Of a stretch of DNA of 41,227 nucleotides, positions 32,765 to 37,833 are shown in pieces (positions within the stretch are counted from its first letter, which is position 1; each line of letters begins with the position of its first letter). The stretch comes from a virus (Duplodnaviria > Heunggongvirae > Uroviricota > Caudoviricetes), in IMG/VR virus record IMGVR_UViG_2541047931_000011, positions 1 through 41,227 of that record, one strand, 5' to 3'. The position numbers and the translations under genes were made by a program. The notes under the pieces are model-generated. The model did not search any database and was not told the origin of the DNA. It saw only the letters and a program-made list of their open reading frames with translations.

Positions 32765-34117
<1,353 letters not shown>

Positions 34118-34167
34118 TCCCCACCTCAATCTCAGTAACCCAAAAACAAACTATTTTCCGTTTAAAA

Positions 34168-34235
34168 ACAATGGAGTTTGTTTTTTGCACCTCCATTTAC
34201 AATATTTCTTGTTTACAACATACAATCTTTCTTGT
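34168..34235. promoter_or_regulatory. Left operator region: three 434-type operators, with pL
   Basis: acaatggagtttgt 34168-34181, acaatatttcttgt 34199-34212, acaatctttcttgt 34222-34235, upstream of nutL and N. Confidence 0.7.
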
Positions 34236-34269
34236 AATTTTAAGCCATCAGCAGGACGCACTAACCACC

Positions 34270-34300
34270 ATGAAGGTGATGCTCTTAAAAATTTAGCCCT
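34270..34300 (+). promoter_or_regulatory. nutL (boxA-like TGCTCTTAA and boxB GCCCTGAAGAAGGGC)
   Basis: boxB hairpin at 34286-34300 and boxA-like element at 34270-34278, about 120 nt upstream of N. Confidence 0.75.
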
Positions 34301-34420
34301 GAAGAAGGGCAGCATTCAAAGCAGAAGGCTTTGAGTAGCGCGAAATGCAGCTGCAAGACAGCAACCGTGGAGATAAGCATCACGGCGCGTTACTCAAAGC
34401 TAACTGACAGGAGAATCCAG

Positions 34421-34747
34421 ATGGATGCACAAACACGCCGCCGCGAACGTCGCGCAGATAAACAGGCTCAATGGAAAGCAGCAAATCCCCTGTTGGTTGG
34501 GGTAAGCGCAAAGCCAGTTAACCGCCCTATTCTCTCGCTGAATCGCAAACCGAAATCACGAGTAGAAAGCGCACTGAATCCAATAGACCTTACAGTGCTG
34601 GCTGAATACCACGAACAGATTGAAAGCAACCTGCAACGTATTGAGCGCAAGAATCAGCGCACATGGTACAGCAAGCCACGCAGTGAAATGGGGGTGACTT
34701 GTGTTGGTCGCCAGAAAATGAAATTAGGCAGCAAACCACTTATTTGA
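34421..34747 (+). CDS. N: Antitermination protein N (lambda)
   Basis: Protein begins MDAQTRRRERRADKQAQWKAANPLLVGVSAKPVNRPILSLNRKPKSRVESALNPIDLTVLAEYH, matching lambda N including the arginine-rich boxB-binding motif; the track ORF has a 30-codon upstream extension. Confidence 0.9.
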   Translation: MDAQTRRRERRADKQAQWKAANPLLVGVSAKPVNRPILSLNRKPKSRVESALNPIDLTVLAEYHEQIESNLQRIERKNQRTWYSKPRSEMGVTCVGRQKMKLGSKPLI

Positions 34748-34825
34748 GGTGATATATGGAAGAAGAATTTGAAGAGTTCGAAGAGCATCCGCAGGATGTG
34801 ATGGAACAATACCAGGACTATCCGT

Positions 34826-35026
34826 ATGACTACGACTATTGATAAGAATCAATGGTGTGGACAATTCAAACGATGCAATGGATGCAAGCTGCAATCGGAA
34901 TGCATGGTTAAGCCTGAAGAAATGTTTCCTGTAATGGAAGATGGGAAATATGTCGATAAATGGGCAATACGAACGACGGCAATGATTGCCAGAGAACTTG
35001 GTAAACAGAATAACAAGGCTGCCTGA
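34826..35026 (+). CDS. ral: Restriction alleviation protein Ral-like
   Basis: 66-aa ORF immediately downstream of N; sequence recalled as lambda Ral (not verified); SD AGGA upstream. Confidence 0.55.
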   Translation: MTTTIDKNQWCGQFKRCNGCKLQSECMVKPEEMFPVMEDGKYVDKWAIRTTAMIARELGKQNNKAA

Positions 35027-35091
35027 TGGTGGCCTTTATTTTTGGCATAAACAACAGAATAAACACTGCACTGAATTATTTGAGGTGAGAT

Positions 35092-35562
35092 ATGACAAAA
35101 TCATGGAGCGTACCTTTTCCTGAATCAGAAACTGAACATGATGGAATGCCTGTTTTCTGGAGATTCCAAGCGACAGTTGAAGAAGATGGAATCAAAATAT
35201 TCGCACTTCAATATATAGCTTTTCATCAGACAGAGCATTATGCATGGTTGGTTCCTGCGCATTGGATTGTTGATTTTAAACCAGCACCAAATCAGTGGTT
35301 ACGGGAATGGAAACAAAGGAGAAATAGATATGCAATTAAGAAAGTAGCAAAAAATGCAGAAAGATCTTTTGCATTCCCAACGAAGAAACTTGCCATTGAG
35401 AGTTTATTGCGCCGGAAGAAATACCGTTTAATGAGAATCAAACAAGATTTGGCTGTTGTATCAACTCTTGTTGATGGGATGAAGAATATTGATACATCAA
35501 CACCAGATATTGAATATAACTTTGGACACAACCAAGAAACAGAAAATTGGGTATTTTATTAG
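35092..35562 (+). CDS. Hypothetical cargo protein (156 aa) in the pL operon
   Basis: Strong SD GAGGTGAG; AT-rich coding sequence; no TM segment or recognised motif; sits where lambda carries superinfection-exclusion/early accessory genes. Confidence 0.5.
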   Translation: MTKSWSVPFPESETEHDGMPVFWRFQATVEEDGIKIFALQYIAFHQTEHYAWLVPAHWIVDFKPAPNQWLREWKQRRNRYAIKKVAKNAERSFAFPTKKLAIESLLRRKKYRLMRIKQDLAVVSTLVDGMKNIDTSTPDIEYNFGHNQETENWVFY

Positions 35563-35666
35563 TACGAATAAGCACTGTGTATTCATTCCCACGAGTGAAT
35601 ACACGGAGCAATGTCGCTCGTAACTAAACAGGAGCCGACTTGTTCTGATTATTGGAAATCTTCTTT

Positions 35667-35693
35667 GCCCTCCAGTGTGAGGGCGATTTTTTT
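35667..35693 (+). terminator. Rho-independent terminator in the early-left operon
   Basis: GCCCTC-cagtgt-GAGGGC followed by GATTTTTTT. Confidence 0.5.
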
Positions 35694-35705
35694 GACGGAG
35701 GAAAT

Positions 35706-36017
35706 ATGAAATTACGTGTCTGGCATATCCCGCAAGTACCTATGAAACCGTTCATTGTAGAAGTGGCAAGTGTTGAAGAGGGTGTTCGCCTGATGGATGC
35801 ACTGGCTGATTATGACGCCTTTCAGTATGACAACAACATCAAGCCTGACTACTGCAATGCTAACGGCCTTGAGATGTGGGATGAGAGCCTTACCGATGAA
35901 GATTTATCAGAAATGGGGCTTACTGATCGCTGGGTGGATTGGTACAGCGAATGCCAATGTTACGACGACCCACGTAAATATCTCGAAAGCCTGAAAGAAG
36001 AAACATCAGCCGCCTAA
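35706..36017 (+). CDS. Hypothetical acidic protein (103 aa)
   Basis: ATG at 35706 with SD GGAGGAA; the track ORF starts 18 codons upstream, across the terminator. Confidence 0.5.
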   Translation: MKLRVWHIPQVPMKPFIVEVASVEEGVRLMDALADYDAFQYDNNIKPDYCNANGLEMWDESLTDEDLSEMGLTDRWVDWYSECQCYDDPRKYLESLKEETSAA

Positions 36018-36092
36018 GCGCGGCTTTACCGCATACCAATAACGCTTCACTCGAGGCGTTTTCGTTATGCAATCAAATATAAGGAGTTACCC

Positions 36093-36227
36093 ATGATGCA
36101 CTTTCAGCTCGCGGGTAGCGGCGTCATGTCCGCTTTCTACCCGCACGAATCTGAATTATCACGCCGAGTTAAACAATTAATCAGAGCAGCAAAGAAACAA
36201 CTGGAGGCGTTATGCGCAATGAAATAG
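36093..36227 (+). CDS. cIII: cIII-like protein (44 aa)
   Basis: ORF not in the supplied track; SD AAGGAG at 6-nt spacing; MMHFQLAGSGV...ESELSRRVKQLIR resembles lambda cIII MQYAIAGWPV...ESLLERITRKLRD. Confidence 0.45.
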   Translation: MMHFQLAGSGVMSAFYPHESELSRRVKQLIRAAKKQLEALCAMK

Positions 36228-36364
36228 CCATCAATCACCAGATGCTTCGTGCTGCACAGAACAAAGCAGTAATAGCCAGATTTATTGGTGATTCCAAAAT
36301 GTGGCTTGAAGCAAATAAAGCGATGAAATCAGCGATCAACATTCCGTGGTATCGCAGGAAATGA
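36212..36364 (+). CDS. kil: Kil-like host-killing protein (50 aa)
   Basis: ORF not in the supplied track; SD GGAGG; ...AVIARFIGDSKMWLEANKAMK resembles lambda Kil ...ATFIGDEKMFREAVDAYK. Confidence 0.45.
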   Translation: MRNEIAINHQMLRAAQNKAVIARFIGDSKMWLEANKAMKSAINIPWYRRK

Positions 36365-36618
36365 GTTTTACAGATAACTGGTCAGACGAAGAATTCATTC
36401 GTCAGATGAAAGATTTAATCGGTAACGAAGGAGATATTCATGTCACTTGCAACCACAGTGAAGGAGAGCAAGTTACAGAGACGCATGTACACGCAGAAAG
36501 CTCTCTGGTATCGCCATAATGGCGACCGCGAAGGAATGCGGGTATGCCTTAATTTGTCCCGAGTCGAAGTATTAAATCAGCGTTATTTCCTTGGGCCATG
36601 TCCATTCTGAGGTGAATT

Positions 36619-37326
36619 ATGGATTTGAATAAATTCGATGAGCCATTCAGCCCTGAAGATATCGAATGGCGAATACAGCAAAGCGGTAAAACACGCGATG
36701 GAAAGGTGTGGGCTATGGTGCTGGCTTATGTCACGAACAGGGCAATCATGAAACGCCTGGACGATGTTTGCGGCAAAGCAGGATGGCGCAATGAATACCG
36801 CGATATTCCCAACAACGGCGGAGTTGAATGCGGCATATCAATCAAGATTGATTCCGAATGGGTAACCAAATGGGATGCTGCTGAAAACACGCAGGTAGAA
36901 GCCGTCAAAGGTGGTCGTTCAGGTGCAATGAAGCGTGCTGCCGTTCAGTGGGGAATCGGTCGGTATCTGTATAACCTTGAGGAAGGTTTCGCACAAACAT
37001 CTCTCGATAAAAAGCAGGGGTGGCACAGGGCAAAACTGAAGGATGGAACAGGATTTTACTGGCTCCCTCCATCGCTGCCGGGCTGGGCAATGCCAGTATC
37101 AGATAACAAACCATCACCAGAAAATACCAACCAGAAATCTCCATCGGTTGACTGCGAACAAATCCTGAAAGACTTCAGCGATTATGCTTCAACAGAAACT
37201 GACAAGAAAAAACTCATCGAGCGTTATCAGCGTGACTGGCAATTAATGGCTGGCAACGAGGAGGCGCAGGCTAAATGCGTTCAGGTAATGAACATCAGAG
37301 TTAACGAACTAAAACAGGCGGCATAA
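36619..37326 (+). CDS. Rad52/Sak-like single-strand annealing protein
   Basis: 235-aa ORF immediately upstream of ssb in the position of lambda bet; central conserved-looking block (KGGRSGAMKRAAVQWGIGRYLY). Confidence 0.55.
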   Translation: MDLNKFDEPFSPEDIEWRIQQSGKTRDGKVWAMVLAYVTNRAIMKRLDDVCGKAGWRNEYRDIPNNGGVECGISIKIDSEWVTKWDAAENTQVEAVKGGRSGAMKRAAVQWGIGRYLYNLEEGFAQTSLDKKQGWHRAKLKDGTGFYWLPPSLPGWAMPVSDNKPSPENTNQKSPSVDCEQILKDFSDYASTETDKKKLIERYQRDWQLMAGNEEAQAKCVQVMNIRVNELKQAA

Positions 37327-37833
37327 ATGGCAAGCAGAGGCGTAAATAAGGTGATTATCCTTGGTCGGGTAGGACAAGACCCGGAAGTTCGATACTCACC
37401 ATCAGGAACAGCGTTCGCTAACCTGACAATAGCCACGTCAGAACAATGGCGAGATAAAAATACTGGCGAGCAAAAGGAATTGACTGAATGGCATCGTGTT
37501 GCTGTATCCGGGAAACTGGCTGAGGTCGTGGGGCAGTATGTGAAAAAAGGTGATCAGATTTATTTCGAGGGAATGCTGAGAACCAGAAAGTGGAAAGACC
37601 AGTCAGGGCAAGACCGTTACACAACCGAGGTTCATGTCGGAATTAATGGCGTGATGCAAATGCTTGGCGGCATTGGCGACAGCAAACAACAAGCAGCCAG
37701 CAGGCAATCACAGAAGCCACAGCAGCAATCATCACCAGCACAACACAACGAACCTCCGATGGATTTTGACGACGATATACCCTTTGCACCAGTAACTCTC
37801 CCCTTCCCTCGTCACGCTATTCACGCAATTTAA
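37327..37833 (+). CDS. ssb: Single-stranded DNA-binding protein with C-terminal extension
   Basis: N-terminal OB-fold region typical of E. coli-type SSB, Gln/Pro-rich linker, acidic tip DFDDDIPF followed by 15 extra residues before the stop. Confidence 0.85.

Follow-up and report, generated by a model that had tools for sequence, protein, structure and literature searches.

An AT-rich early gene of the HK97 gp45 family carried as a cassette in the leftward operon of a lambdoid phage

What is an AT-rich gene of 156 codons, situated between ral and the cIII/kil block of a lambdoid leftward early operon, and what might its protein do there? The gene, termed ORF156 here, belongs to a stretch of viral DNA of 41,227 nucleotides (IMGVR_UViG_2541047931_000011), which was analysed at its full length and is called the window below. 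The features of the operon around it are the following.

33084-33716, + strand: cI-type repressor
33641-34117, + strand: ORF of 158 aa, PHROG 2651, overlapping the 3' end of the cI repressor gene
34418-34747, + strand: N, PHROG N-like
34756-34842, + strand: lambda orf28 homologue
34826-35026, + strand: Ral, Pfam Ral 1.6e-48
34756-35026, + strand: orf28-ral cassette, same slot, 5' of ORF156
35092-35562, + strand: ORF156, ATG start, TAG stop at 35560-35562; 156 aa, 18.7 kDa, pI 9.3; HK97 gp45 / 933W L0079 family, PHROG 1636
35563-35705, + strand: structured non-coding stretch
35706-36017, + strand: gp17-like superinfection-exclusion gene, PF17420, E = 7e-56
36093-36227, + strand: cIII
36212-36364, + strand: Kil
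36346-36610, + strand: two small ORFs
36619-37326, + strand: Erf-like annealing protein
37327-37833, + strand: SSB
37847-38140, + strand: Abc2

ORF156 lies in the leftward early operon, 3' of N and 5' of cIII/kil, which is the position of the gp45 family. The initial annotation, made from the sequence, had placed it between N- and Ral-like genes upstream and cIII- and Kil-like genes downstream; all four are present, and the gp17-like gene that precedes cIII had been omitted. This gp17-like gene takes the position held by ea10 in lambda and 933W. At the upstream end of the region, the cI-type repressor has an N-terminus that we take to be that of phage 434, and the neighbouring ORF of 158 aa sits where lambda has rexAB. 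The latter begins with a hydrophobic stretch of 20 residues that resembles a signal or lipoprotein sequence, and it is a candidate lysogen-expressed gene.

ORF156 is preceded by a Shine-Dalgarno (SD) sequence, GAGGTGAG at 35082-35089, whose GAGGT is separated from the ATG by five bases. Its GC content is 36.5% (GC3, 27%) as compared with 49.7% for the whole window, which corresponds to the 2nd percentile among all 471-bp windows, and the adjoining genes have 41-50%. The chance of a stop-free run of 156 codons at the base composition of ORF156 is P = 3.8e-6. When ORF156 is compared with the 62%-identical homologue of Salmonella phage NX263, pN is 0.21, far under the saturated pS of 0.78; the gene is therefore under purifying selection. 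These values bear out the initial description of a 156-aa gene with a distinctly AT-rich composition and a very strong SD, and ORF156 is a genuine protein-coding gene. The alternative, that it is a chance ORF or a decaying remnant and not a functional gene, is favoured by nothing except the missing annotation. It is opposed by the ORF length and the strong SD, by a pN well under pS, by hundreds of full-length copies within a deep and diverse family, and by a co-variation-driven AF2 model with a pLDDT of 95.8. For practical purposes this alternative is refuted, and we assign it a negligible probability.

Judged by sequence identity, ORF156 is already known as HK97 gp45 and 933W L0079. It shares ~98% nucleotide and 97-98% protein identity with HK97 gp45 (AAF31125.1) and 933W L0079 (AAD25424.1) over the full length, and both phages also share its 5' junction, downstream hairpin and terminator. 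The match to phrog_1636 has E = 2.5e-110 over residues 1-156 of 156. The distribution, whose examination the initial annotation had proposed, proved to be wide: the gene occurs in 80 phage records, mostly Stx1 or Stx2 converting phages, and in 598 of 5426 complete E. coli genomes (~11%), with up to four copies per genome. The E. coli copies are 95-99% identical. In all sources the gene is annotated as "hypothetical" or "prophage protein", and a literature search on HK97 gp45, L0079 and phrog_1636 found no paper mentioning it.

Thirty close homologues were found (49-98% identity), confined to Enterobacterales. A profile search that covered 1.84 billion cluster representatives extended the family to 106 representatives at 50% clustering, nearly all of 130-160 aa, and the distant members were linked to HK97 gp45 by reciprocal tblastn. 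Among the relatives are temperate phages and prophages (Pseudomonas Medea1, a Marinobacterium prophage and Vibrio phages) as well as the Ackermannviridae Erwinia phage phiEa2809 and Pantoea LIET2. Relatives recognised by fold occur in Ackermannviridae and in Achromobacter, Delftia, Rhizobium, Cellulophaga and Tenacibaculum phages, of which the Achromobacter and Delftia phages are N4-like. The family is phage-only and widespread, reaching far beyond the lambdoids into both temperate and virulent phages. An association with plasmid leading regions was considered and ruled out: no member was found on conjugative plasmids, and the plasmid matches were just 11 non-mobilizable phage-like records. 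A locus search with a five-sequence ORF156 alignment yielded six loci, and a scan of genome contigs yielded one E. coli locus. Two apparent multidomain relatives (P0057 and P0122) were repeat-protein false positives, and no informative domain fusions were found in the family.

How ORF156 is inserted can be read from the alignment with the lambda ral-ea10 interval, which defines the following elements.

35074-35577, + strand: ORF156 cassette, 504 bp inserted relative to lambda
35068-35073 (left) and 35572-35577 (right), + strand: direct repeat GCACTG, 6 bp, bracketing the insertion
35076-35094, + strand: junction TTATTTGAGGTGAGATATG, containing the SD and the start codon of ORF156
34740-34758, + strand: second junction copy, covering the stop codon of N and the start of orf28

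The 504-bp cassette comprises the junction with the SD, ORF156, nine bases of 3' flank and the second GCACTG. At the corresponding point lambda reads ...AATAAACACTGCACTG|TGTATTCATTCC..., where the ral flank joins the downstream hairpin at a single GCACTG. The 19-nt junction, TTATTTGAGGTGA(T/G)ATATG, is present in two copies in the window, one before orf28-ral and the other before ORF156. Because each stands behind its own junction copy, the window carries two tandem cassettes, orf28-ral and then ORF156. HK97 and 933W have the same junction (TTATTTGAGGTGAxATATG) in front of gp45, and Sakai Sp5 has it in front of ECs1180. It resembles a common linker for the exchange of alternative early cassettes.

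The homology of the cassette to HK97 and 933W begins 18 nt 5' of the ATG and runs through the hairpin and the terminator. In both phages gp45 / L0079 directly follows N, whereas in the window the orf28-ral cassette intervenes. The ~40 nt before gp45 in HK97 (L001, 3400-3500) and 933W (L002, 2900-3000) match the 3' end of the lambda-type N of the window (...GGTCGCCAGAAAATGAAATTAGGCAGCAAACCACTTATTTGA), and the annotated N of HK97 ends earlier, at an upstream TGA. This ~40-nt stretch seems to be left over from a lambda-type N and to have travelled with the cassette. In Sakai Sp5 and mEp234, the same junction and right flank surround a different gene of 83 aa.

3721-3972 of the Sakai Sp5 locus (L023): ECs1180 (ECs_1180), 83 aa, PHROG 2471, VT2-Sa p20-like

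The last three residues of ECs1180 (KAA) and its 3' flank are common to ral, which suggests that recombination inside the 3' end of ral may have produced the shared segment. In lambda, HK140 and 2G7b the slot is occupied by ral itself. The initial proposal that ORF156 is cargo in a variable accessory segment is thus shown to be correct by the empty site in lambda, by the 83-aa gene in Sp5 and mEp234 and by the place of the gene directly after N in HK97 and 933W. By comparison with lambda and the many lambdoid phages that go without it on the same backbone, ORF156 is dispensable.

Since the gene has neither a promoter-like site nor a terminator of its own, it is an operon-embedded accessory cassette in a defined slot and not a classic moron; the alignment fixes both the cassette and its slot with single-base precision. 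A + strand scan of 34000 to 36366 gave no sigma-70-like promoter. A minus-strand promoter-like match at 35553-35581 (TACACA, 17 nt, TAAAAT; 9/12) starts within the first downstream hairpin and points antisense into the 3' end of ORF156. It is likely to be a chance match, because the region contains fewer promoter-like matches than its shuffled versions (2 as compared with a mean of 4.2). Overlapping the stop codon of ral, at 35015-35036, is a hairpin with a T-run that resembles a terminator; lambda and Sp5 share it, and mEp234 has it annotated as a terminator. ORF156 therefore stands behind a possible terminator in the window, unlike its counterparts in HK97 and 933W. In those two phages no terminator separates N from gp45, and tL2a comes behind gp45, so that gp45 would belong to the very first pL transcript. 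Situated after N and before the first terminator, its product is probably among the first two pL proteins, a timing typical of counter-defence and host-takeover factors.

Distant relatives hold comparable positions, usually in early operons, and often stand beside DNA methylases and genes of recombination or replication. In NX263 (vB_SpuS_NX263; L005, 3431-5901), the 62%-identical homologue opens an operon that follows a sigma-70-like promoter with a 10/12 match, and at locus L015 and in Vibrio phage PvVp04 the relative is first or second in an early operon. The annotation of another gene in the NX263 operon, DNA polymerase III beta subunit, is curious beside the up-regulation of host DnaN by PreS, a neighbour of the E. 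coli copies of ORF156. A Pfam scan of neighbouring genes identified DNA methyltransferases near the relatives in at least 6 of ~17 contexts. Other neighbours in the family include Ral (in the window), a gp5.9-like RecBCD inhibitor, RdgC, SSB, exonucleases and primases, and no fixed partner gene was found across the contexts.

The stretch behind ORF156 was resolved into three elements.

35577-35604, + strand: hairpin with a 12-bp stem, 35577-35588 / 35593-35604 (GUGUAUUCAUUC / GAGUGAAUACAC), one G-U pair, loop CCAC
35605-35693, + strand: PreS/LPR1 homologue, ~88 nt; approximate, with the 3' end set where the tL2a U-tail stops and the 5' end estimated from the published length
35665-35693, + strand: intrinsic terminator equivalent to lambda tL2a, stem 35665-35686 followed by T7

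The inverted repeat first described as having a 9-bp stem does contain nine perfect core pairs, and its full stem has 12 bp with one G-U pair. It lies directly 5' of the PreS region and differs from its counterparts in lambda, HK97 and 933W by one loop base alone. Positions 35572-35692 of the window are 99.2% identical to lambda 33925-34045, and the sole difference falls in this loop, outside the ~88-nt sRNA. The region occurs in 327 phage records, the majority of which do not contain ORF156, and the tL2a-equivalent terminator is annotated in HK97 and mEp234. The repeat and the terminator noted at the outset are thus present after the gene; by their near-identity to lambda, however, they are lambda backbone (the PreS/tL2a region) and lie outside the cargo. 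RNA folding of the stretch, in agreement with the terminator scan, gives two hairpins, the first of them the 12-bp one, and then a single-stranded linker that leads to the terminator hairpin, with a folding energy in the 3' PreS region that is 4 SD better than that of shuffled sequences (z = -4.0). A search of Rfam 15 at E <=1 returned no family either for the whole window or for 34950-35800, and Rfam 15 contains no PreS model.

In lambda, LPR1/PreS lies between ral and ea10 and ends at tL2a. It is an Hfq-dependent sRNA of ~88 nt, processed to ~68 nt and made in the lytic cycle; it represses alaS, raises the translation of dnaN and aids the replication of phage DNA (bioRxiv 10.1101/2024.10.31.621285). 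Because the PreS/tL2a region follows directly, the mRNA of ORF156 would carry PreS at its 3' end in the window, HK97 and 933W alike. The gene upstream of PreS is ral in lambda and ORF156 in the window. The cassettes of the slot would therefore constitute the upstream mRNA of PreS, which is relevant to sRNA production in Stx phages.

The ORF156 protein is hydrophilic (GRAVY -0.60) and has no hydrophobic stretch. The protein is acidic at its two ends, and its residues 57-130 contain 19 K/R as compared with 6 D/E. G33, T47, K87 and A101 are the only positions that are (nearly) unchanged throughout the wide family. The consensus, YR..GV.I...F..HETxC ... VKRxxK...RFAFxTKxxAxxxLxxRKxxQLxHLxR, retains a basic stripe, and the conserved positions concentrate on the basic strand 83-87 and on a basic/polar stripe along the long helix. 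No conserved catalytic set was found across the wide family. The idea of a metal site at the "HETxC" turn was dropped, since the Cys and His positions vary across the family.

The AF2 model built from 20 close homologues was poor (pLDDT 61), and that from 89 diverse family sequences was the confident one mentioned above (pTM 0.83; five models, pLDDT 91-96). In the predicted fold, a long three-stranded beta-sheet at residues 19-55 (strands 19-30, 33-46 and 50-55) is followed by short helices at 58-61 and 66-74, a beta-beta unit at 83-96 that includes the basic strand (83-86 in the model), a 33-residue helix at 98-130 and an ordered C-terminal tail. A PDB fold search with the model found no analogue, and a BFVD fold search returned 13 uncharacterised phage proteins at E <1e-3. 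On present evidence the predicted fold is specific to phages, with no solved analogue.

Sequence searches agree with this picture. Neither Pfam nor NCBIfam matched the protein, and Pfam at E <=10 on 89 relatives gave no consistent match and no HTH or known regulator domain. PDB sequence searches with the protein and the family profile returned chance matches only (twinfilin, IF1; E >=0.23), and PADLOC-DB v2 returned only a chance-level match to Cas1_II (E = 0.018, 12 bits). No SieB match was found in Pfam or PHROG, and the protein has no membrane-type segment. Two candidate relationships were examined by hhalign and rejected: an AP2 / integrase arm-type DNA-binding domain of three strands plus a helix, suggested by the RFAFxTKxxA motif, scored <1% probability against AP2 and the lambda Int arm, and Rha/Bro-N homology, suggested by one weak Pfam match, scored <1% against Rha protein. 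The initial annotation had called the protein soluble and free of recognisable motifs, and had named homology to a characterised housekeeping protein of lambda as the finding that would overturn its view. The composition and the empty Pfam, NCBIfam, PADLOC and PDB sequence and fold searches agree with the former description, no homology of the latter kind was found, and the structure prediction that it had proposed gave a confident fold.

From these features we offer a tentative reading of the role of the protein. ORF156 would be transcribed from pL together with N, and the transcript through it would stop at the backbone tL2a, with PreS as its 3' end. The protein would act stoichiometrically and not as an enzyme. 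Its conserved basic patch, formed by strand 83-87 and one face of the long helix, may bind nucleic acid or one of the host enzymes that act on it, and such binding very early in infection could aid the incoming or replicating phage DNA, either as counter-defence or in host takeover. The exclusion or anti-defence role considered in the initial annotation is likewise a hypothesis. We infer the binding of a polyanion (DNA or RNA), or of a protein that handles one, from the basic core, the conserved basic strand and helix stripe and the lack of a catalytic set. We thus favour the possibility, although we would not call it probable, that ORF156 is dispensable and encodes an early factor without enzymatic activity that targets nucleic acid in the service of counter-defence or host takeover. 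Besides the basic core, the place in the early operon and the methyltransferase and RecBCD-inhibitor neighbours point in this direction; the neighbourhood evidence is weak, however, since early operons are mixed bags and there is no fixed partner. Several observations count against it. No homology between ORF156 and a known DNA- or RNA-binding domain was detected. Arms-race proteins often diversify rapidly, and such divergence is not seen among the E. coli copies (95-99% identity). Unlike the known anti-defence proteins that mimic DNA, which are acidic, the ORF156 protein is basic. In addition, several general anti-restriction proteins occur on conjugative plasmids, and the ORF156 family does not.

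The same basic core would also suit a regulator of the phage itself, that is, a sequence-specific DNA or RNA binder that tunes early transcription or the lysis-lysogeny decision and is not directed at the host. The relatives in NX263, L015 and PvVp04, which stand at the start of early operons beside divergent control regions, are consistent with such a role, as is the proximity to N, cIII and Kil in the lambdoid phages. However, lambda and many lambdoids of the same backbone dispense with the gene, and it is found with different N types, immunity regions and recombination modules, so that no fixed cis target in the phage can be assigned to it. The presence of the family in virulent phages and the lack of an HTH or known regulator domain argue in the same direction, and we consider a regulator unlikely. 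Somewhat less probable still is an accessory of replication or recombination that loads, protects or remodels DNA intermediates together with SSB, Erf/RecT or the sliding clamp. The protein is basic, its family has SSB, Erf, RdgC, exonucleases, primases, a replication initiator and a DnaN-like gene among its neighbours, and the E. coli phage copies adjoin PreS, the sRNA that boosts DnaN. Nevertheless, none of these neighbours is a fixed partner, and the gene is not linked to one module, being accompanied by Red in 933W and by Erf in HK97 and the window. The adjacency to PreS, moreover, follows from the insertion slot and is missing in distant homologues.

The AT-rich, foreign-looking composition and a location shared with sieB and gp17-type exclusion genes might instead suggest an exclusion or defence moron that is expressed in the lysogen and protects the host, like sieB or rex in the same lambdoid region. 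The gene, however, has no upstream promoter-like site, abuts N in HK97 and 933W and lacks its own terminator; its product is soluble and not a membrane protein, and its PADLOC match is at chance level. Homologues also occur in strictly virulent phages, where a function in the lysogen would be senseless. Such a role is accordingly the least expected of these, with only a slight chance of being correct. We therefore favour the counter-defence or takeover factor, followed by the regulator, the replication or recombination accessory and lysogen exclusion, in that order, and leave part of the probability unassigned. A much broader proposal, which we put forward as speculation and regard as doubtful, is that the gp45-like proteins are the founding family of a new fold class of non-enzymatic basic immediate-early effectors, common to temperate and virulent phages that infect Proteobacteria and Bacteroidota. 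By binding DNA, RNA or a conserved host nucleic-acid enzyme, these effectors would neutralise a widespread host barrier, and the E. coli gene would also serve as the mRNA body that releases PreS.

HK97 and 933W, both among the best-studied lambdoid phages, carry the gene, as do many Shiga-toxin prophages, and yet it has no Pfam family. With a confident model, a broad family and easy genetics, for which lambda provides a natural empty site, it is a good target in the search for a new early phage function. ORF156 is in this sense a worthwhile experimental target and not a surprise.

The comparison with known systems delimits what kind of gene it is. Classic lambdoid morons, such as HK97 gp15, were reportedly defined by Juhala et al. 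in 2000. ORF156 is like them in being extra, AT-rich and atypical, and missing from collinear relatives, as the empty site in lambda illustrates. It differs from them in lying inside an early lytic operon without a promoter or terminator of its own, and therefore expression from the prophage is not expected. Ral has a role in anti-restriction; it is, however, a protein of 66 aa with its own Pfam family, has no sequence similarity to ORF156 and is unrelated to the predicted fold of the 156-aa protein, and its role is not transferable to ORF156. What Ral and ECs1180 do have in common with ORF156 is the site: all three are small, dispensable early genes that occupy the same pL slot behind the same junction and are followed by PreS/tL2a.
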